Below are positions 27,510 through 41,530 of a stretch of 44,556 bases of DNA, in pieces. This DNA comes from Silvanigrellaceae bacterium (lineage in GTDB: Bacteria > Bdellovibrionota_B > Oligoflexia > Silvanigrellales > Silvanigrellaceae), in assembly GCA_049423385.1 (NCBI GenBank), contig JBMSQQ010000018.1:1-44556 (forward strand). Direction: 5' to 3'. How positions within the stretch are numbered: position 1 is the first letter of the stretch; each line of letters starts with the position of its first letter. Made by a program: the position numbers and the translations under genes. The notes under the pieces are model-generated. The model was given only the letters and a program-made list of their open reading frames with translations. It was not told where the DNA came from and did no database searches.

Positions 27510-28265
27510 TCAGAGGAGTCGAATCGATCGCCTGATGCTGTCGACATCATCATCCGTCAAAGGATTCCCTGCTATTCCCAAGCTCGACAGCATGGAAAGC
27601 TCCTTGATTGGCTTGAGTGACATGATGCGATTCTCACGCACATCCAGCTCGTCAAGGTCACGCAAATCCTCAAGACCTTCCAGGGAGGTGAGCGCGTTGC
27701 GACGCAGGCGCAGCACCCGCAAGCTCTTGCGTTTTGCAATTGGCCCTGCATCTGCAACCATGTTTTGCGACAGGTCCAACAATCTGAGTTTCTCGAGCCC
27801 GGCAAAAGGCTTCAAGGTGGTCAGGCTGTTTTCAGCAAAGTTAATCTCACGCAATTTCGACAACGAAGCTGCAAAATCGACGTTGCGAAGCTTGTTCCGA
27901 CGTGCCGAGAGAACTTCGAGTTCAGAAAATCCCGCGAGCCAATCCAAAGACTCCAGGTCGAGTTCATCAACATGAAGCGCTTTCAAGGAAGTCAGACCCT
28001 TGAGGGGATCAAGACTTACGACGCGGCTGCCGTTGAGTTTGACGCCCGTCACGGTTGGCATTTTCGAAAGCACCGACAAATCCAACGCCCATTGGCGCTT
28101 CATCCACGGGTCCACCGACAAATCGAAAAGATCCAACTGTGCAAGCTTTGCCAAAGCTTCCTCGTTCGAGGAGGCACGCACAAGCTTGCGGATCAATTTG
28201 GCTGTTTGAATCGCGGGATCCTGACTTGCCTCTGCTTCCCACATGGCAAAGAGTTCTGCACTCAT
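27510..28265 (-). CDS. Cytoplasmic internalin-like leucine-rich repeat protein
   Basis: 22-aa LxxLxLxxNxL repeats (e.g. LRLLDLSQNMV, LRVLRLRRNAL); no signal peptide; ATGA overlap with orn. Confidence 0.85.
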   Translation of the reverse strand: MSAELFAMWEAEASQDPAIQTAKLIRKLVRASSNEEALAKLAQLDLFDLSVDPWMKRQWALDLSVLSKMPTVTGVKLNGSRVVSLDPLKGLTSLKALHVDELDLESLDWLAGFSELEVLSARRNKLRNVDFAASLSKLREINFAENSLTTLKPFAGLEKLRLLDLSQNMVADAGPIAKRKSLRVLRLRRNALTSLEGLEDLRDLDELDVRENRIMSLKPIKELSMLSSLGIAGNPLTDDDVDSIRRSIRLL

Positions 28266-28819: not shown

Positions 28820-31501
28820 TCAAGCCAATGACTGCAAACTGGCCTGCAAGACAGAAAGTTCTTTCTCGTTGCTTGCAAGCTGCTCACGAGCACCTGCAAC
28901 AATATGCGCCGGTGCAGATTTGACGAATTCCTCATTGGACAAACGCTTGCGGATGCCTTCGAGCGTCTGCTCAACTTTCTGGATTTTCTTGGTCAAGCGG
29001 TCGCGTTCGGCTGCCGGATCAACAAATCCCGTGAGATCGACAAACACCTCCATTCCACCCGCAAGTGCAGTGCCACACAGAGCAGGACGCTGATCAGAAA
29101 AGGTGAATGCCGCGCGGGCGAGAAATTCCATTTGCGGAACCATGAGTCCGAAACGTTGCCGGGATGAATTGATTGTGACCTTGAGATCGGCCCCCGGATG
29201 GATCGCAAATTGTCCACGCACGGCGCGAACGGCTCCAACAACCGATTGCACCTCGCGCATGGCTGCGATGGCATTTGTATCAATGAATCCAGGCTGTGGA
29301 CGCGGCAAGACTGCATGACCCAGGGTATTTCCTTGATGGTCACCCAAATTCTGCCAAATTTGCTCGGTGACAAAAGGCATCACTGGGTGCAGCAGGCGCA
29401 AAATCCCATCCAGAAGCTGGAGTGCGGTGCGGATGGACTCATTCGCCAGCTGCCTTTGCTCGGCAGTCATGCCTTCCGGATCAGCAAACCGGGGCTTGCA
29501 CAATTCTACAAACCAATCGCAGTAAACCATCCAGACAAATTCATACAAAGACGATGTGTAGTTTGAAAATTCGAGCCTCTGGATACTGTCGTGAGCTTTT
29601 TGCACGACAGCAAAAAATTCAGATGTCACCCAACCCAGCAGGGTGTCTGATGGTTTCGCAGTCAGCTGATCGAAACTTACACCTGCCGAATCGATTCCAT
29701 GCTTTTCGGCATTCATCAACAGAAACCGCGTCGCGTTCCAAATCTTGTTGGCAAATGTGCGGCCCAGTTCGCATGCGTCGTCCGCCCAAAGGATGTCTTG
29801 CCCCAATACGACCTGATTGATCACGCTGAAGCGAAGGGCATCGGTTCCATATTTGGCAATCAGCTGATTCACATCAGGACTGTTGCCGAGGGACTTGCTC
29901 ATTTTGCGCCCCTTGGAATCGCGAATGATGGGCGTAAAATAAACGTCCTTGAACGATGTCTTGTCTGTAAAATATCCACCCGCCATGATCATCCGGGCGA
30001 TCCAGAAAAAGATGATATCCGGACCGGTGACAATAATGTCTGTCGGATAAAAATACTCGAGATCCTTCTTTTGCTCTTCGCTCGGGTTTGCCCAGTTGTG
30101 CACACCAAACGGCCACAACCAACTGCTGGCCCAAGTATCGAGGCAATCAGAATCCTGCTTCAGATCGGCGTGCCCGCACTTTTCGCACCCGGTGGGTTGC
30201 TGCTCTGCGCACGTCACATGCCCACACGATTGACATGTGTACATGGGCATTTGATGACCCCACCAAAGCTGGCGCGAGATGCACCAATCCTTGATGTTTG
30301 TCAGCCAGTATTCCCAAATCTTTTCCATGTGCGGAGGATGCAGCTTGAGCTGGCCACTGCGGGTCGCATTGAGGGCAATCTCTGCCAACTTGTCCATTTT
30401 GATGTACCACTGTTCGCTCAAGTAATACTCAATGGGCACACCACCACGCTCAGAAATGCCAACAACCATCTTGTGGGGTGCTGTTTTTTCCAGAAGCCCA
30501 AGGGATTCAAGTTCGGCGACCAGTTTCTTGCGCGCAACAAAGCGATCGAGCCCCTGATATGCCTGCGGAACCTTGTCGTTCAAGGTTGCATCGGGATTCA
30601 TCACGTTGAGCAGGCCCAATTTGTGACGCTCTCCAACCGCAAAGTCATTCATGTCGTGGGCAGGAGTGATTTTCACCACACCGGTACCGAATTCCTTTTC
30701 CACATATGTATCGGCGATGACAGGAATGCTTCGGTTGCAAACCGGAACAATAACTTTGTTGCCAATCAACTTTGAATAGCGCTCATCGTCGGGATGAACC
30801 GCGACGGCAAGGTCGCCAAAAAGAGTTTCGGGACGCGTTGTCGCCACAACAAGAAACTCGCCCGTCTTGCCTTCAACAGGATACCGGATGTGCCAAAGAT
30901 TTCCATTCCGCTCTTCGGGATTCACCTCTTCATCGGAAATGACCGATTGGCTGACAGGACACCAGTTCACCAAACGATGACCACGGTAGATCAAGCCATC
31001 CTTGTAGAGTTTCACAATCGCCTTGATTACGGCACGGGAATAATCGGGCGACATGGTGAAAACTTCCCTGTCCCAATCGCAGCTCACGCCGAGCGTTTTG
31101 AGCAGTGAAACAATACGGCCTCCGTATTTTTCCTTCCATTGCCAGGCATGCTTGAGAAACTCTTCCCGACCTATGTCCCGCTTGTTGATTCCCTGTTCGG
31201 TCAACATCTTGGTCACCTTGGCTTCGGTCGCGATGCTCGCGTGGTCGGTGCCCGGTATCCAGCACGCTTCCTTGCCGTTGGCACGGTTCCAGCGGATGAG
31301 GATGTCCTGCAGTGTGTTGTTGAGCACATGCCCCATCGTCAGATCGCCGGTGACATTCGGCGGGGGCATGACAATCGTGTACGCCTGCTTTGACGAATCG
31401 CGCTTGGCCCTGAAAAACTTGTGACTTTCCCAGTAATTCCTCAAACCTGCTTCAATCTGGCCAGGTTCAAATGGTTTTTCAAAAGCGTCACGTCGAGCCA
31501 C
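28820..31501 (-). CDS. valS: Valine--tRNA ligase
   Basis: PPPNVTGDLTMGH (HIGH variant), DWCISRQLWWGH, KMSKS, C-terminal coiled coil; start set at GTG 31501. Confidence 0.97.
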   Translation of the reverse strand: MARRDAFEKPFEPGQIEAGLRNYWESHKFFRAKRDSSKQAYTIVMPPPNVTGDLTMGHVLNNTLQDILIRWNRANGKEACWIPGTDHASIATEAKVTKMLTEQGINKRDIGREEFLKHAWQWKEKYGGRIVSLLKTLGVSCDWDREVFTMSPDYSRAVIKAIVKLYKDGLIYRGHRLVNWCPVSQSVISDEEVNPEERNGNLWHIRYPVEGKTGEFLVVATTRPETLFGDLAVAVHPDDERYSKLIGNKVIVPVCNRSIPVIADTYVEKEFGTGVVKITPAHDMNDFAVGERHKLGLLNVMNPDATLNDKVPQAYQGLDRFVARKKLVAELESLGLLEKTAPHKMVVGISERGGVPIEYYLSEQWYIKMDKLAEIALNATRSGQLKLHPPHMEKIWEYWLTNIKDWCISRQLWWGHQMPMYTCQSCGHVTCAEQQPTGCEKCGHADLKQDSDCLDTWASSWLWPFGVHNWANPSEEQKKDLEYFYPTDIIVTGPDIIFFWIARMIMAGGYFTDKTSFKDVYFTPIIRDSKGRKMSKSLGNSPDVNQLIAKYGTDALRFSVINQVVLGQDILWADDACELGRTFANKIWNATRFLLMNAEKHGIDSAGVSFDQLTAKPSDTLLGWVTSEFFAVVQKAHDSIQRLEFSNYTSSLYEFVWMVYCDWFVELCKPRFADPEGMTAEQRQLANESIRTALQLLDGILRLLHPVMPFVTEQIWQNLGDHQGNTLGHAVLPRPQPGFIDTNAIAAMREVQSVVGAVRAVRGQFAIHPGADLKVTINSSRQRFGLMVPQMEFLARAAFTFSDQRPALCGTALAGGMEVFVDLTGFVDPAAERDRLTKKIQKVEQTLEGIRKRLSNEEFVKSAPAHIVAGAREQLASNEKELSVLQASLQSLA

Positions 31502-31596
31502 GGTTTCCCCCAGAGCAAGTTTTGGTTTTGCACGGACTCTGTGTACCATTCTGCAAAGCGAGTTCAAAACTTTCTCGAAAAAGGAGTCATGGCCGG

Positions 31597-32367
31597 ATGC
31601 CAGCCAACTGGAATGTTTCCTGGTCAGGTGCCACAGACCAAGGCAAAGTCCGCTCACAGAACCAGGACAATTATTATGGAGACCCCCGCGGTCGATTCTT
31701 GATTGTGGCCGATGGAATGGGCGGGCATTCAGGTGGAGAAATCGCCAGCCAGATTACGGTTGATGCCGTGATTGGTGTGCTGAATGAGGTGGATTGGGAT
31801 GACCTGCCTTCAGCAGAAGAACTCGTCGACCAGTGTGTTAAAGCAGCGACAGACGGACTCAAGGAATGGGTGAAGACTCACCCGGATCAATCGGACCTCG
31901 GGACAACTTTGCTGTTGTGGATTCGTTCCCATGGACGAGTGATCCTGGCCAGCCTTGGGGACAGTCGTATTTATTTGCTGCGGGAAAACCGCCTCTTCCA
32001 AATCACTTTCGATCAAACAATAGAGTCCGAGCTGCGGCGGCGTGGCGCGACCCGCGACCAGGCCTTCAAAAGTCCAGGTTCAGCGTACCTTTCGCGATGC
32101 ATACTCGCCTCACGAATCTGCGAGCCCGACATCATCTCCATCGACAGTCGTGATTCGGACGTATGGATGCTTTGTTCCGACGGATTGACCCGTGAAGTCG
32201 ACAATGAGGTCATACACGAGATGATGACGCGTCTCTTCCAGAGGCCTCCCCGGGACACGGTGCATGCTTTGGTTGAACGCGCGTTGCAAAATGGCGGTCG
32301 CGACAATGTGACCGTGGTGGTGGCAAAGCTCAACTCAACCACACAAATCAACGTTGAAAATCTTTAA
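31597..32367 (+). CDS. PP2C/PPM Ser/Thr phosphatase (Stp1/PrpC-like)
   Basis: TDQGKVRSQNQD, VADGMGGHSGGEIAS, GTT, GDSRIY, LCSDGL, GGRDNVT; start at ATG 31597. Confidence 0.92.
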   Translation: MPANWNVSWSGATDQGKVRSQNQDNYYGDPRGRFLIVADGMGGHSGGEIASQITVDAVIGVLNEVDWDDLPSAEELVDQCVKAATDGLKEWVKTHPDQSDLGTTLLLWIRSHGRVILASLGDSRIYLLRENRLFQITFDQTIESELRRRGATRDQAFKSPGSAYLSRCILASRICEPDIISIDSRDSDVWMLCSDGLTREVDNEVIHEMMTRLFQRPPRDTVHALVERALQNGGRDNVTVVVAKLNSTTQINVENL

Positions 32368-33251: not shown

Positions 33252-34298
33252 ATGTCTGCTGTCGCAATACCAATCAGGGACATTTCCGAACAGGAACACA
33301 AAGATGCAGAACTTCTTGCGAAGTTTGAGGTGTTTCGCGATTTCACGCGGATCTTCCTCGACGGCTTTGTGTTGATCAACTCGCAGCGGAAAATCCTGAA
33401 ATTCAACCAGGGTTTGTGCGCGGCCTTTGGCGTTAAAGCCATCGACGTGAAAAAACTCAACACCATCGATGACCTCATCAACATGCCAAATCCAAGCGGA
33501 GTTGGCAGCGCCGTGGATGAAATCATGAAAGCCGCTGGCCCTCTGCGTATTGATGAAATTCAGGCGACCCGCAACAACGGCGAAAACTGCTACCAGCTGA
33601 TTGTCGGAAGCTATCCGTTTTTCGATTCGAAAGGTGAGTTCATTGGTGCCTGCATTATACTTCGCGACGTGACCGCAGAAACCAACCTCCAGGGCAAGTA
33701 CAAGGAAAAATCGATTCAAAGTGTCACCGATCCTCTGACCGGATTGTACTTGCGGCGATATTTCGAAGAACAAGTTGATTCGGCAATGATGAAACTTAAA
33801 GAGATGAATCAACCCCCGGCAATTGGAATTTTGATGTTCGACCTCGACAAGTTCAAGAGCATCAACGACACATTCGGCCACCAGGCGGGTGACTTCGTGT
33901 TGGTGGAAACTGCGAAAATTCTAAACAGTGTATCGCGGAAGACAGACATCGTTGGTCGCTACGGAGGCGAGGAAATCCTGATTGTCGTGTTTGGCGCAAC
34001 CCGCGAAGGATGTTGTCAGGCCGCGGAGAAATTCCGTATTGCCGTTGAGGAACATGAGTTTATTTTTGAAGGCAAACGCGTTCCGGTGAGCACCTCTGTG
34101 GGGGTCAGCCTTTTCACCGACCTGAACGACAGCCGCGAGAACGTGGTCGCACGCGCAGACAAATGCCTCTACGCTGCGAAAGCAAACGGAAGAAATGCGG
34201 TGTACTGCGACTTCGGCGAAAAGCCTGATCCTGAACGGGTGACTCCGGAAGGCCAAGGTGGACGTCCGGATCTTGGTGCTGCAGGTTTTGGTCACTGA
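33252..34298 (+). CDS. PAS-GGDEF diguanylate cyclase
   Basis: PAS/PAC (..ILRDVT), DPLTGLY, DLDKFKSINDTFGHQAGD, I-site RKTD, A-site GGEEI. Confidence 0.92.
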   Translation: MSAVAIPIRDISEQEHKDAELLAKFEVFRDFTRIFLDGFVLINSQRKILKFNQGLCAAFGVKAIDVKKLNTIDDLINMPNPSGVGSAVDEIMKAAGPLRIDEIQATRNNGENCYQLIVGSYPFFDSKGEFIGACIILRDVTAETNLQGKYKEKSIQSVTDPLTGLYLRRYFEEQVDSAMMKLKEMNQPPAIGILMFDLDKFKSINDTFGHQAGDFVLVETAKILNSVSRKTDIVGRYGGEEILIVVFGATREGCCQAAEKFRIAVEEHEFIFEGKRVPVSTSVGVSLFTDLNDSRENVVARADKCLYAAKANGRNAVYCDFGEKPDPERVTPEGQGGRPDLGAAGFGH

Positions 34299-36756: not shown

Positions 36757-37848
36757 TCAGTTTTTGACTGGATATTCGCGGGTGTCGATCAGCAAACTTG
36801 CACCCGCAGCCAATGGATCGGAGTTGGACTCCTTGCGGATTAAAAGTATGGCGGAGTCTTCATTCGATTTTGAAGGCTCGAAACGAATCACATGCAACTC
36901 CGAACCACCAGGACCTGTCAGGTGCATGCCGATTTTCAATCCATAGGCGAGGCCCCTGTCGACAGTCACAAAGCGACCTTCCCTCTTGATGACCTTGATA
37001 TTTTTCTCGGTCAGCGAATGAACCATTGAAGAGAGTTCCTGGCTAACCATTCCAGCGATTCTTTCAGGATGAAACGGCTCCGGTTTTTCTGTTGAAAGTT
37101 CCCTGGCTTTGAGTGTGGAATTGAATGGCAGTGCGATAAAGCCAATTTTCCCCGACATCATGGGCCACTTCTGGGGTTCCTTGGGACGCAGCCCTTGCAA
37201 GCGAACCTTGACCTGCCGATGGCCCTTTTTCAGAACCACACCCACATCGTTTTGTTTTGCTGGTGAAGCCTCGCCTTTCTTGTCCGACTTCTTGATCTCC
37301 TTGAAACAGGCGAGGCCTGACAAATCCGAATGAACAACCAAGCCATCGGAAGACAATTTTTCAGCAAGCGCAGATTCGCTCAACCAAGCCAACGCGGGCC
37401 CCCAGTATCCGAAGGTCTCGAGAGACAGACGCACAGGTGACCTGAGGTTGTCGAACTTTCGAGCTGCAGCCTCCTTGAGCCTGTTGGCATCCTGCCCCGC
37501 AAGTCCAGACGGCAAGGTCGCGGACCATTCGCTGCCCCAAACGATATTGCTACCCAACAATTGACATGAATCTTTTCGAATCAAGACTGCAATCCTGGCG
37601 AGTTCTCCACTGTCAAACTTCGAGCCACCGGGAAAGACAAAATAAGTTTGCAGCAATCCGTCGAAAGATTCCTGCCAATCGTAAAACCTTGAATTGCGAA
37701 AAGCGCCGACCTTGATTTCCTCGCCAGGACTTGCATTCCAGAGCTTGACGAGACCAGCGCGGAACTCGCTCATGACCTTCTGGTGCTTCACCAATCGCTC
37801 GGCTTCATATGGAATCACCTGCGTCGGAGGAACAAAAAGCAAAGGCAT
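36757..37848 (-). CDS. Hypothetical protein with possible FlgT-C-like C-terminal beta domain
   Basis: TGATG coupling to the upstream gene; VIKREGRFVTVDRGLAYGLKIGMHL resembles FlgT C-terminal-type domains. Confidence 0.6.
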   Translation of the reverse strand: MPLLFVPPTQVIPYEAERLVKHQKVMSEFRAGLVKLWNASPGEEIKVGAFRNSRFYDWQESFDGLLQTYFVFPGGSKFDSGELARIAVLIRKDSCQLLGSNIVWGSEWSATLPSGLAGQDANRLKEAAARKFDNLRSPVRLSLETFGYWGPALAWLSESALAEKLSSDGLVVHSDLSGLACFKEIKKSDKKGEASPAKQNDVGVVLKKGHRQVKVRLQGLRPKEPQKWPMMSGKIGFIALPFNSTLKARELSTEKPEPFHPERIAGMVSQELSSMVHSLTEKNIKVIKREGRFVTVDRGLAYGLKIGMHLTGPGGSELHVIRFEPSKSNEDSAILLIRKESNSDPLAAGASLLIDTREYPVKN

Positions 37849-40313
37849 CAGAAGAGGATTCCCAAGGCACCCGTCAACGCAAAGGGTGCACTGAAGTCGG
37901 TGCCACCCCGACCATCACTTCCGACAATCGAAAAGTTCTTGAGCTGAAGGTCGAACAAATATTTCCTTGCCATGAAAAAACGACTGCCAATGGCAAAACT
38001 TGCCATTGGACTGGTCTGGGCAATTGGAGTGGGACGCCCCGAGAGACCATATTTGTTTTCGTCGGTCGTTCCGACATCTTTCATGTTCACTATTTTCCCA
38101 TCCACTTCCAAAGTGTCCTGGAGAGGATAAAAGTTGCTCATGGCAATTCCCGCTCCTGCGCTCAGGTAGAAATCCAGATAAACCACCTGCGACAAAAAGA
38201 AGAGCGACTTTCCGTAGACCGGAGTCCATTGATAGTTGGCCGCAACGACCGTACCAATTTCGCGGATTGGCATGTAGGCTGCATTTTTCTGAAATGGCGC
38301 GCGTTTCTCATAGTACTTTGGATTCTGAGCAACCTTGTCTGGATTCTTTGTCCCGGCATCCGGGTCCCCATAGTCGATTGGCAAATTTGCCGCATCCTTG
38401 GGTGCTGCGCGTGGGTCTGAGACCTGTGCACAGGGAAAAACCACGGGCTGATTTCGCCCGGCATAATCGGTGTCGAGATAAAAGTTTTCCACACATGTTC
38501 TGTCGAGCTTGTCCGTCGAACTGCCCAACAGAAATTCCACGTTGAGTGCGTTCCATTCGTCGAAATGATAGGTCGCGCCACCACCAAACAAAACGGTATT
38601 CACGAACGACTGGTTGAGAATAAGGCCACCTCCACCACTGAGCTGAAAACGACCTTTTTTGGGATAGAACTTGCCCTTGACGACCTCATTCCCCTCGACT
38701 GACTTTCGATAGTCTGCCTGTGCTGGACGAGGAGCGAGTGCAGCCAGAGTCCCGAGAACCATCAAAAGTGCTGCAAGCAGGGCGCCCTTTTTACCGCCTC
38801 CGGTTTTGCTTCCCGCGCTGCCCACTTTCGATGCGGCCGTGACGGTCCCCGGAGTTTGAATCATGTTCAGAGTCTGGGGATAAACGGTGTGATTCAAAAA
38901 TCGCAGGCCCATGACGCATGAATTGCCAGCTTTGCCTCGCCCCATCGTGGGCATCAAAGGATGCATCTGTGTCGTTGGCTGGGCATTGAGAACAAGTGGT
39001 ACAACACAGTGGCGGCGGACGTTGAGAATTGTCGACTCGTTTTGCGAAAAGACGGATACCGCCCGCGCGCTCGCAAGGTCGTTCAAAGTCTGCACCGCTG
39101 CATCCATGCTTTCCACCGGAACAATGGCAACATCAGGAGCAAAAAAAGCGTTTGATGCGTAGACGCTGCTTTTGATCTTTTCATTTTTCATGAGGTGAAC
39201 GCCAGGCGAAACAAAATAGCCTCCACCCGGGTTGTCGATCGCCTTGCCCCAACGCAGCGTTTCGATGGATTCACGGGCAGCTATACCTTGAAAGCGCAAG
39301 AACCGATCCCAGGACGTCTGGCTGCACAAAGGCCCCATGACATGATGCGTTGAATCGGCCAAATCACTCTTGACACCAATGGGCATCTGTTTGACCGATT
39401 TGACGAACTTGTCGACAAACGCGTCGACAATGCGATGGTCCACGAATGCGAGACTCGTTGATTCAAGCCTCTGACCCGCATCAAGACAGGCACCCAAAAG
39501 AACTTTTTCAACGGCGTCATCGAGGTTGGCATCCGCTGCCACCACTGCAGCATTTTTTCCGCCTCCGCAGAGAACAAGGCGGACGTTCTGGTCGGTGGAC
39601 ATGTCCCTGCGCAGTTGCTCCAGTGACTCCTCACCACCTGTATAAAAGATCGTGTCGAATTGGTGTGAAAGCACGAGCCGACGATAGACTTCCAGGTCTC
39701 CGTAAACCACCTGGACAAGACCTGCCGCAGGATTGGCCTGATGGATGCAGCTGGCAATCAGGGACGCGGACAGTGGACAATGCGCGGATGGGCGAAATAC
39801 GACAGCATTTCCTGCTGCCAATGAAGTGAGAATACTGTAAAGCGCCGTGTACACCGGCAGTGCAACGTTCGTGCTGATCAGCACCAAACCCACTGCTGCA
39901 TAAGTCCAATTCCAACCCAATTCCGATTTTTGTGGCGAGAGCTCTTCGGAACAGTAGCGCGGCAGATTTTTAAAAACCTCTTCGCAAAGTTCCCATTCAT
40001 GATCGACGGCCCAGCGGGAGCGACCCAACTCGAGCATCATTTGGCTCTTCATCTCGTCGGCCGATTGTCTCATGTTTGAAATAATCGAATTTATGAATTG
40101 CATCCGTGAAGAAAGCGACTGCGCTGCAAACTGCAGTTGTGCCCGCTTTGCAGATTCAACAATCTCACCCACGAGATCCTTGTTCCAGCCGGTCACTGCC
40201 AGGATATCGAGCGGTTTCATCGGATTCACAGTGTGAAAAATCCGCTCAGGTTTCTCGAGCGCAAGAAACCTTCCATTGATGTAAGGCGAAAGAATTGTGG
40301 ATGACGTACCCAT
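37848..40313 (-). CDS. Fusion: degenerate aldehyde-dehydrogenase domain + internal signal peptide + outer-membrane beta-barrel
   Basis: ALDH motifs (AGNAVVFRPS, YTGG, LCGGGKNA, AGQRL, MGPL, GYFVSP, FAP); then KKGALLAALLMVLGTLAALAPRPAQA; then a barrel (VVKGKFYPKKGRFQL..WTPVYGK..LDFYL..GILF). Start set at ATG 40313 (SD GAGGA). Confidence 0.85.
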   Translation of the reverse strand: MGTSSTILSPYINGRFLALEKPERIFHTVNPMKPLDILAVTGWNKDLVGEIVESAKRAQLQFAAQSLSSRMQFINSIISNMRQSADEMKSQMMLELGRSRWAVDHEWELCEEVFKNLPRYCSEELSPQKSELGWNWTYAAVGLVLISTNVALPVYTALYSILTSLAAGNAVVFRPSAHCPLSASLIASCIHQANPAAGLVQVVYGDLEVYRRLVLSHQFDTIFYTGGEESLEQLRRDMSTDQNVRLVLCGGGKNAAVVAADANLDDAVEKVLLGACLDAGQRLESTSLAFVDHRIVDAFVDKFVKSVKQMPIGVKSDLADSTHHVMGPLCSQTSWDRFLRFQGIAARESIETLRWGKAIDNPGGGYFVSPGVHLMKNEKIKSSVYASNAFFAPDVAIVPVESMDAAVQTLNDLASARAVSVFSQNESTILNVRRHCVVPLVLNAQPTTQMHPLMPTMGRGKAGNSCVMGLRFLNHTVYPQTLNMIQTPGTVTAASKVGSAGSKTGGGKKGALLAALLMVLGTLAALAPRPAQADYRKSVEGNEVVKGKFYPKKGRFQLSGGGGLILNQSFVNTVLFGGGATYHFDEWNALNVEFLLGSSTDKLDRTCVENFYLDTDYAGRNQPVVFPCAQVSDPRAAPKDAANLPIDYGDPDAGTKNPDKVAQNPKYYEKRAPFQKNAAYMPIREIGTVVAANYQWTPVYGKSLFFLSQVVYLDFYLSAGAGIAMSNFYPLQDTLEVDGKIVNMKDVGTTDENKYGLSGRPTPIAQTSPMASFAIGSRFFMARKYLFDLQLKNFSIVGSDGRGGTDFSAPFALTGALGILF

Positions 40314-40399
40314 TGAGCGTGTCCTCAGAAAAATTTCCTGCACAGGCCTCTCAGGTCATGCTAAACGGTTTACTTCTGAAATGAAATTGGCGCGTTCCG

Positions 40400-41530
40400 T
40401 CAAGACCTGGAAATATTTTCCCAGATCTTGCGGTCGAGTGAAGTCGCGACGCTCCTTTCTGTGATGGATTTTGACACCCATCGGGATGAGGAGATGAGAT
40501 TCGGAAATTGCTCAGTAAGCCCTCTGATGAAATGGCCAGCAGCATCCAACTTGTTTTTCAAGCTGACATCAATGATTCCAACCTTGATCTGATGATTGGT
40601 TATGGTGTGGGAAACACTTTTATCAAGAACTCTTGAGCATTTGACATCAGCACTCCGGGCAAGCCAGTCCAAAAGCAGCTGCCTGTCGCTGCCAGCAAAA
40701 AGTGGAAAACCGACAGTATGAGACAAAAATCCGCCTGCCCGGCTGATGAGCAATATCGAATCGTCCGAATGCTGTTCATTGCTGAAGCAACAAACATTCA
40801 GCGCATCCAGTTCAACGGCCTCGAAGCTCTTGCGAGGCTTGGGAACAGGACAATCCTGAACCGATTGTTCACGATATGCCAAACAAAAACGACTGAGGGG
40901 ACACCCGCGACAGTCGGGTGACTGCTTCTGACATACTGTCGCCCCCAGTTCCATCATCCCTTGATTGAAGTCACCCGGACGTTCACTGTTGATACAGCTG
41001 TCGACCAAGCTCTGAATCCTCGACTTGCCAACTTCACTCCAGATTTCGGGCGAAGAACAGCCTGTCAGTCGAGCAACAACCCGAATCACATTTCCATCCA
41101 CACAACCTTTTGGAGTCGAAAAACAGATGCTCGAAATAACACTGGCCGTGTATGGACCTACCCCAGGAACCTTCAACCATTCTTCATAAGACCCCGGAAA
41201 AACACCGTCGCGTTCCGTGACGATATACGTTGCACCCTTTCGCAAGTTTCGCGCGCGTGCGTAATAGCCAAGGCCCGACCACAGCTCGCGAAGAGTTTCA
41301 TCCGAACAGGTTGCCAATTGAGAAACGGATGGGAGGGCTTTGATGAACTCGACAAAGCGGGGAACAACCACTGCCATCGTGGTTTGTTGACTCATGACCT
41401 CGCAGATCCACGTACCGTATACCGTTTTTTCTCGTCGCCAGGGAAAATCACGCTTGTTGACATCATACCAATTCAACAATGCGTCAACCCAAACAGGATC
41501 TTCACGAAGATGCGCGTCATCCAAAAACAT
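40400..41530 (-). CDS. mutY: A/G-specific adenine DNA glycosylase
   Basis: RDFPWR, EVMSQQT, WSGLGYYARARNL, VPGVGPYTA, VDGNVIRV, Fe-S motif CQKQSPDCRGCPLSRFC. Confidence 0.95.
   Translation of the reverse strand: MFLDDAHLREDPVWVDALLNWYDVNKRDFPWRREKTVYGTWICEVMSQQTTMAVVVPRFVEFIKALPSVSQLATCSDETLRELWSGLGYYARARNLRKGATYIVTERDGVFPGSYEEWLKVPGVGPYTASVISSICFSTPKGCVDGNVIRVVARLTGCSSPEIWSEVGKSRIQSLVDSCINSERPGDFNQGMMELGATVCQKQSPDCRGCPLSRFCLAYREQSVQDCPVPKPRKSFEAVELDALNVCCFSNEQHSDDSILLISRAGGFLSHTVGFPLFAGSDRQLLLDWLARSADVKCSRVLDKSVSHTITNHQIKVGIIDVSLKNKLDAAGHFIRGLTEQFPNLISSSRWVSKSITERSVATSLDRKIWENISRS

Follow-up and report, generated by a model that had tools for sequence, protein, structure and literature searches.

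In a 44,556-nucleotide stretch of a Silvanigrellaceae draft genome (assembly GCA_049423385.1, contig JBMSQQ010000018.1; this whole stretch is called the window below), we identified a single unbroken open reading frame (ORF) on the minus strand (37848..40343; 831 codons from GTG 40343) that encodes four parts in the following order: an aldehyde dehydrogenase (ALDH)-fold domain, a Gly/Ser/Lys/Thr linker, a Sec-type signal, and an outer-membrane barrel domain of the TIGR04565 family. From the sequence we infer that the whole frame is translated as a polyprotein, that this is inserted by Sec at the internal signal, and that signal peptidase I (SPase I) releases the barrel; on balance, we lean slightly towards this reading. 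It is favoured because the frame stays open across a junction that is hypervariable, because the features of a cleavage site are kept, because this site is homologous to those of real signals, and because no start codon for a separate barrel is conserved. According to a fuller version of the proposal, a single chain comprises a cytoplasmic ALDH-like pseudo-enzyme and an outer-membrane barrel until SPase I splits it, the pseudo-enzyme stays tail-anchored in the inner membrane at a fixed 1:1 ratio to the barrel, and this route has been retained throughout the history of the whole family; this version seems to us evenly poised between right and wrong.

Four parts of one reading frame

The probable start of the fused gene is ATG 40313 (M11 of the 831-amino acid (aa) frame), from which the coding sequence (37848..40313, minus strand) runs to the TGA at 37850-37848. 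This codon is preferred because a Shine-Dalgarno (SD)-like GAGGA (40322..40326, minus strand) lies 8 nt upstream, and because the consensus of 41 orthologs begins at M11. The first-pass annotation of this DNA, which placed the gene end at 40313 as well, had described an ALDH part joined to an outer-membrane barrel via an internal signal within one ORF. The uninterrupted frame and the family matches bear out this description, and the positions it gave (the ..HTVYPQ end of the ALDH part, the signal at 38792-38715, the GALGILF end, and an ATG at 38864) all match the translation. An AlphaFold2 (AF2) model of the full-length protein (mean predicted local distance difference test score, pLDDT, 81.8) shows the same order, i.e., a confidently modelled ALDH fold, a disordered linker (residues 496-520, pLDDT below 50), a helix covering the signal segment (residues 519-536), a further disordered stretch (residues 538-556), and then strands.

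The ALDH-fold domain (38871..40247, minus strand) matches Pfam Aldedh (PF00171) with residues 33-486 (E-value 5.3e-59; 200 bits versus a cut-off of 23; profile positions 7-455 of 461) and runs on to ..TVYPQT at residue 491. Furthermore, 206 PDB ALDH sequences align to the domain at E ≤ 1e-10. Together with the confident AF2 model, these matches place the whole domain in the ALDH superfamily by sequence and by fold. NCBIfam gave only sub-threshold matches for this part, and no equivalog was reached (best 150 bits versus a cut-off of 770). Compared to canonical NAD(P)-dependent ALDHs (PF00171), with which homology and fold are shared over the full length, the domain lacks two residues that we take to be the catalytic ones, namely the nucleophile Cys in the motif G-Q-x-C and the general-base Glu in E-L-G-G. 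The position of the catalytic Cys is occupied by Leu293 (codon 39465..39467, minus strand; GQRLES versus GQRCTS of 10fm_A), and that of the general-base Glu by Cys259 (codon 39567..39569, minus strand; LCGGGKN versus LELGGNN of 10fm_A). The same applies to the 41 fused proteins (764-832 aa), which we found in a 5.8-billion-protein database: the first column holds Leu (31), Ile (4), Val (4), or Met (2) and no Cys, and the second holds Cys (39), Ser (1), or Val (1) and no Glu. Invariant instead are GQR-E-T and FLRFQGIAARE..TLRWGK. In separate ALDH-like homologs of other families, the Cys is mostly kept and Gln stands where Glu is expected. As other residues are invariant while the catalytic Cys and Glu are gone, the domain is under selection and yet is unlikely to act as a standard dehydrogenase; it is probably a pseudo-enzyme.

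The ALDH part is followed by the variable linker LNMIQTPGTVTAASKVGSAGSKTGGG (residues 492-517; 38793..38870, minus strand), which comprises 26 residues and includes the in-frame ATG 38864-38862. The internal Sec-type signal KKGALLAALLMVLGTLAALAPRPAQA comes next (residues 518-543; 38715..38792, minus strand). Its 26 residues consist of KK, a 17-residue hydrophobic core, PRP, and then AQA, and therefore show the basic n-region, the hydrophobic core, and the small residues at -1 and -3 that are expected of a Sec signal cleaved by SPase I. These features are shared by the fused orthologs, all 41 of which have a hydrophobic core (best 12-residue Kyte-Doolittle mean 2.1-3.0); they retain the helix-breaker and the polar c-region as well, and Ala is found at -1 in 40 and at -3 in 28 of them. 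The junction itself, measured from the ALDH end to the DYRK motif, is hypervariable: it covers 22-58 aa, comes in 23 different lengths among the 41 proteins, and has no detectable similarity between genera. In its shortest forms, the hydrophobic core directly follows the ALDH end.

Behind the predicted cleavage site lies the segment DYRKSVEGNEVVKGKFYPKKGRF (residues 544-566; 38646..38714, minus strand), which would form the new N-terminus. With a mean column identity of 0.87 among the 41 fused proteins, these 23 residues are the most conserved stretch of the whole protein; the corresponding values are 0.69 for the ALDH part, 0.20 for the linker, 0.35 for the hydrophobic segment plus c-region, and 0.51 for the rest of the barrel. 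Judged by these columns, the ALDH part and the barrel are both under clear purifying selection. By analogy with the topology of OmpA-type proteins, DYRKSVEGNEVVKGKFYPKKGRF would be periplasmic.

The mature part, DYRKSVEGNEVVKGKFYPKKGRFQL...GALGILF (38714-37851, 288 aa), includes a predicted eight-stranded β-barrel with long loops (37851..38645, minus strand). Both family names that the first-pass annotation had assigned by eye, ALDH and TIGR04565, were recovered by profile scans, the latter (OMP_myx_plus) marginally, just at the cut-off (60.2 bits versus 60; E-value 2.3e-16 on the mature 288 aa). Including the signal, the score was 59.5 bits, and a scan of the genome gave 57.5 bits, or 60.4 bits with neighbouring pieces; the TIGR04565 model does not contain an insert that is present between strands of this protein. 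An AF2 model of the mature domain built with 23 homologs (pLDDT 80.4; predicted template modelling score, pTM, 0.73) has eight long strands. Foldseek comparison with the PDB placed the OmpA transmembrane domain at the top (E-value 1.9e-6; template modelling score, TM-score, on the target 0.70-0.80), followed by OmpW, the OprF N-domain, Ail, and NspA (overall E-values 1.9e-6 to 7e-4 and target TM-scores 0.5-0.8). The mature domain thus models as an OmpA-like eight-stranded outer-membrane barrel. It shares the predicted fold with these proteins at an identity of only 7-12%, and differs from OmpA-type barrels by an insert of ~80 residues with conserved Cys residues between strands 3 and 4; furthermore, it lacks the periplasmic OmpA_C domain. 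Its last residue is Phe, and the 41 fused proteins end in Phe (26) or Leu (15). In its fold and C-terminal aromatic residue, the domain conforms to TIGR04565 outer-membrane β-barrels; it departs from them in that the signal lies at residues 518-543 and not at the N-terminus.

Conservation and history of the fusion

To assess the fusion in relatives, we searched 40 related genomes, 24 of which are other genomes of the same family, and then read the loci. Of these 24 genomes, 18 have an open junction, namely 11 of 12 genus mates (73-91% identity) and seven genomes from six other genera (about 40-55% identity). The six remaining genomes comprise four of one further genus with the ALDH-like gene alone, one genus mate that is 70% complete and yields only fragments (not assessable), and one small genome without an ortholog. 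In one of the open genus mates, the gene is cut by contig ends with the junction intact on one piece, and in one of the other genera it spans two contigs, with FLFSTVFPKTLSLRQD as their overlap. Adjacent separate ALDH and barrel genes were found in none of the 24 family genomes. Stop codons (TAA) that had been flagged in two genomes (G010 and G003) sit at codon 0, before the start, and not in the junction. Likewise, the 5.8-billion-protein database contains 47 longer proteins bearing the barrel, all of which also carry PF00171, and one fused protein is labelled Silvanigrellales by its source. No stop codon or frameshift was seen in the junction across the 18 family genomes and these 47 proteins.

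The first-pass annotation had asked whether a missed stop codon or an assembly error might lie at 38700-38900. Contigs from two studies cross this region unchanged: a 7986-base contig spans 37700-40387 with one substitution and no indel, and a 1462-base contig of another study spans 38026-39487, also without an indel in the junction. One of these two studies may be the window's own source. In metatranscriptome run X9, two 151-base contigs fall inside the barrel part with 95-99% likeness, which says nothing on starts or on expression in this organism.

Four other families of the class encode the homologous barrel on its own, as a protein of 289-338 aa whose N-terminal signal ends at a point aligned with the end of the internal segment. 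The motif that follows the signal is common to fused and unfused barrels (Y-x-K-A-V-E-G, VV, and K-x-Y/F-P-K-K). More generally, unfused TIGR04565-type barrels (L024-L027, P0058, and two paralogs from the same genome as the window) are homologous to the fused one (32-38% identity) and share its post-signal motif and C-terminal Phe; unlike the fusion, they are proteins of 230-340 aa with the signal at the N-terminus, which is also where the first-pass annotation had expected it for this family. The two paralogs (~230 aa; G000:C53:13557-14063, minus strand, and G000:C5:19749-20258, plus strand) carry ordinary N-terminal signals.

The same four families show a conserved gene order, in which an ALDH-like gene is followed by a phosphogluco/phosphomannomutase gene (~600 aa) and the barrel gene. 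This cluster lies on one strand and contains one or two barrel genes (L024:1972-6382, L025:988-6152, L026:1718-6087, and L027:1879-6445). It suggests that the functional link between its members is older than the fusion. In the genome studied here, the mutase ortholog (43% identity) is found on another contig. In a quick maximum-likelihood tree of the ALDH part, rooted with the separate homologs, the ALDH-only genus falls among the fused lineages (Shimodaira–Hasegawa-like approximate likelihood-ratio test, SH-aLRT, 80), which suggests one fusion in the family ancestor, followed by loss of the barrel in the ALDH-only genus. The fusion would most likely have arisen in that ancestor when the phosphomutase gene between the ALDH-like and the barrel gene moved out. 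The ALDH-like gene of one ALDH-only genome is separated by ~800 bases of AT-rich non-coding DNA (L018:3142-3958) from the gene for a homolog of the 363-aa protein that is encoded downstream of the fused gene; in the other three ALDH-only genomes, these two genes stand back to back.

A profile search of 1.84 billion representatives returned 931 relatives of the barrel, including 68 at E ≤ 1e-30, and the architectures of the best 150 were examined. Nearly all of these 150 have 220-350 aa with the domain beginning at residues 20-80, and the ALDH fusion appears among them as one representative. Apart from it, only P0095 (615 aa) has a long architecture, which consists of an N-terminal signal, a caspase-type peptidase (PF00656, E-value 2e-11), and the barrel. 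P0095 belongs to the same barrel family; in contrast to the fusion, its signal is N-terminal and its extra domain is exported along with the barrel, i.e., its parts follow the conventional order. It represents a protease-barrel fusion facing the surface or the periplasm. Of six proteins returned by a search for free barrels of near length, two come from contigs of 1.1-1.4 kb. The C-terminus of the ALDH part opens P0052, which is a cut fused gene, whereas P0054 (1.9-kb contig) may be genuinely unfused. The search also gave P0051, a 196-aa fragment, and two distant unfused homologs. A metagenome scan for P0054 itself gave no match.

Proposed processing of a polyprotein and rival explanations

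If the fused gene encodes a polyprotein, translation would yield one polypeptide of ~820 aa. Its ALDH-fold domain, which we take as cytoplasmic because it lacks an N-terminal signal, would be made first and stay in the cytoplasm. The emerging internal signal would then engage Sec in the N-in/C-out orientation of a type II membrane protein, with the 288 aa behind it crossing the inner membrane. SPase I would cut after AQA (residue 543), and the freed eight-stranded barrel, beginning with DYRKSVEG, would be inserted into the outer membrane by the β-barrel assembly machinery (BAM). The ALDH-like part of ~58 kDa would remain anchored in the membrane by the signal segment at its C-terminus, at any rate as long as this segment escapes degradation. 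Once fused, the barrel would lack a separate start, and both parts would be locked in one frame by selection for making the barrel; the fusion as such may offer no advantage. A large N-terminal cytoplasmic domain ahead of a single N-in/C-out segment is ordinary in bacteria, e.g., in PknB-type kinases and RodZ. The unusual step is the release of an outer-membrane barrel. Genes for SPase I and BamA are present in the genome. Regarding the cleavage proposed in the first-pass annotation, the nearly invariant Ala at -1 and the homology of the site to the N-terminal cleavage site of unfused homologs speak for it, both being indirect support. Its further proposals, that the ALDH part is tethered to the inner membrane and that a cytoplasmic ligand controls export of the barrel, gained no support from anything we found.

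A nested gene would explain the frame differently: the barrel precursor would be made mostly from an internal start, e.g., ATG 38864, and read-through from the ALDH part would be tolerated but irrelevant. We therefore listed in-frame ATG, GTG, and TTG codons together with SD-like matches in the 75 codons before the cut for 18 of 19 loci (L006 lacks the motif needed for placement). ATG 38864 lies 50 codons before the AQA site. The first-pass annotation had described it as the sole in-frame ATG near the signal and as lacking an SD sequence; the latter holds, as no SD core precedes it, but it is not the only candidate, since the hydrophobic core itself contains TTG/ATG at -17/-16, and a GTG lies at -37. 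Across genera, no start codon is conserved among the 18 loci: L015 has no ATG, GTG, or TTG in the 75 codons, L017 has none between -39 and -13, and the candidate codons differ even between close relatives. Methionine does occur somewhere in the junction of 32 of the 41 fused proteins, and both parts work separately in other lineages, as a nested gene would allow. In the genus itself, however, the 20 nt before the ATG of the TLNM motif contain no SD core, and their third positions vary freely. A consensus scan of the minus strand revealed no sigma-70-like promoter inside the gene; as evidence, this result is weak. Moreover, a barrel with its own start would render stops and frameshifts in the linker harmless, and yet none is seen in the genomes and database proteins described above. 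Taken together, we regard a nested gene as unlikely.

Less probable still appears an uncleaved bitopic protein, in which the signal segment serves as a permanent anchor and the C-terminal domain is held to the inner membrane, either periplasmic or reaching the outer membrane. The hydrophobic core of 15-18 residues, which is long for a signal, would suit such an anchor, and the title of a 1987 paper states that an internalised signal is not cleaved in the endoplasmic reticulum (ER). Against this stand the Ala at -1 and the mostly small residues at -3, which a plain anchor would not keep, the homology to cleavage sites of real N-terminal signals, and a domain with the fold and the C-terminal motif of an outer-membrane barrel. 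In addition, the AF2 model leaves ~28 residues from the helix to the first strand. By textbook envelope dimensions, ~28 residues are too short to cross the periplasm. That the frame merely reflects a sequencing frameshift, a faulty assembly, or a recently lost stop and has no biological meaning is barely credible: the genome is a draft of 183 contigs, but 18 of 24 family genomes share the fusion, at identities as low as 40%, the 47 database proteins that show it come from several sources, the contigs of two studies agree, and the column identities of the ALDH part and the barrel indicate purifying selection. The remaining probability falls to combinations of these explanations, e.g., with both products made.

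Several observations weigh against the polyprotein and have to be set beside those that favour it. The length of the hydrophobic core lies between that of a typical signal and that of a membrane anchor. All 11 scannable loci of genus mates keep the ATG of TLNM, 41-54 codons before the cut, and some single orthologs have a plausible internal start, e.g., L009 with a TTG and AGGTGA 10 nt upstream; such candidates are restricted to single species and chance-like. A 4-mer SD core precedes 42% of the first ATGs of 2035 long ORFs of this genome, compared to 6.8% of 14747 internal ATGs; as the other 58% of first ATGs, and hence many genes, do without it, the missing SD sequence is not decisive against internal initiation. 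In the ALDH-only genus (four genomes, each 98% complete), the ALDH-like gene ends in a short polar tail, and neither a copy of the barrel nor a remnant of it at the locus was detected in these four genomes. This genus and the sister families with split genes imply that neither part needs the covalent link, and the loss of the catalytic Cys and Glu, together with the absence of the barrel from the ALDH-only genus, weighs against an obligatory functional coupling. Finally, P0054 (323 aa) and P0057 (318 aa; ~41% identity) look unfused, with 40-55 residues of unrelated sequence before the hydrophobic core; they may belong to a sister lineage whose n-regions are very long, or their starts may be mis-called.

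Gene neighbourhood, precedents, and implications

The fused gene is followed by a gene for a 363-aa protein (36757..37848, minus strand), the ATG of which overlaps the TGA of the fusion by one base (TGATG). The protein has no Pfam or NCBIfam match, and the Atlas leads only weakly to LpoB/CsgG/FlgT_C (0.88). Its homolog is located downstream of the fused or ALDH-only gene in 21 of 21 other family loci (22 of 22 with the window), and a profile of the protein found no homolog in distant loci. Upstream lies an HhH-GPD (MutY-like) gene (40400..41530, minus strand) in a neighbourhood conserved across the family; within the family, the order mutY-like gene, fused gene, and 363-aa gene is conserved. 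Elsewhere in the window, genes for a PAS-GGDEF diguanylate cyclase (33252-34298, plus strand), a PP2C phosphatase (31471-32367, plus strand), and a small leucine-rich-repeat protein (27510-28265, minus strand) sit among the housekeeping genes valS, truB, gap, and a ddl-like gene.

A bacterial precedent is reportedly provided by FbcH, the cytochrome b/c1 polyprotein of Bradyrhizobium japonicum, which Thony-Meyer and colleagues are said to have shown around 1991 to be cut at an internal signal; our literature search did not turn FbcH up. FbcH is said to resemble the present case in that one bacterial ORF gives rise to two proteins, the downstream one of which is exported via an internal signal and released by signal peptidase. 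It is said to differ in that its upstream part is a polytopic membrane protein and its two products stay together in one inner-membrane complex, whereas here a soluble fold precedes an outer-membrane barrel. In viral polyproteins, as far as the accessible parts of bunyavirus and flavivirus reviews describe them, internal signals likewise split one product across a membrane with the help of the host signal peptidase; these polyproteins differ by their setting in the eukaryotic ER, where no barrel is delivered to a second membrane. A 2026 review of BAM states, in the portion we consulted, that outer-membrane proteins carry their Sec signal at the N-terminus, and its term 'internal signal sequence' refers to the internal β-signal and not to a Sec signal. 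Our literature search gave no paper with TIGR04565 and no description of this gene family, and the titles and abstract openings it returned mention no bacterial outer-membrane protein placed behind a cytoplasmic domain via an internal signal. Within the scope of these partly seen sources, the arrangement is undescribed for bacterial outer-membrane proteins, FbcH and the viral polyproteins being its nearest precedents.

Annotation pipelines and signal predictors rely on an N-terminal signal in outer-membrane proteins. In the genus studied here and in six others, a single frame places the barrel behind a cytoplasmic-type domain of ~490 residues, and such barrels, if processed as proposed, are missed by N-terminal signal prediction. 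The source names of the fused proteins read either 'aldehyde dehydrogenase' or 'outer membrane beta-barrel protein', and never both. If the polyprotein reading is true, Sec and SPase I would be able to act on a signal that is naturally internal and preceded by a large folded domain, and the family would offer a natural system for late (SecA- or signal recognition particle-dependent) targeting and for the fate of a 'signal peptide' that bears a 58-kDa passenger. It would also be a clean example of a fusion of neighbouring genes that is locked in once the downstream gene has lost its own start.

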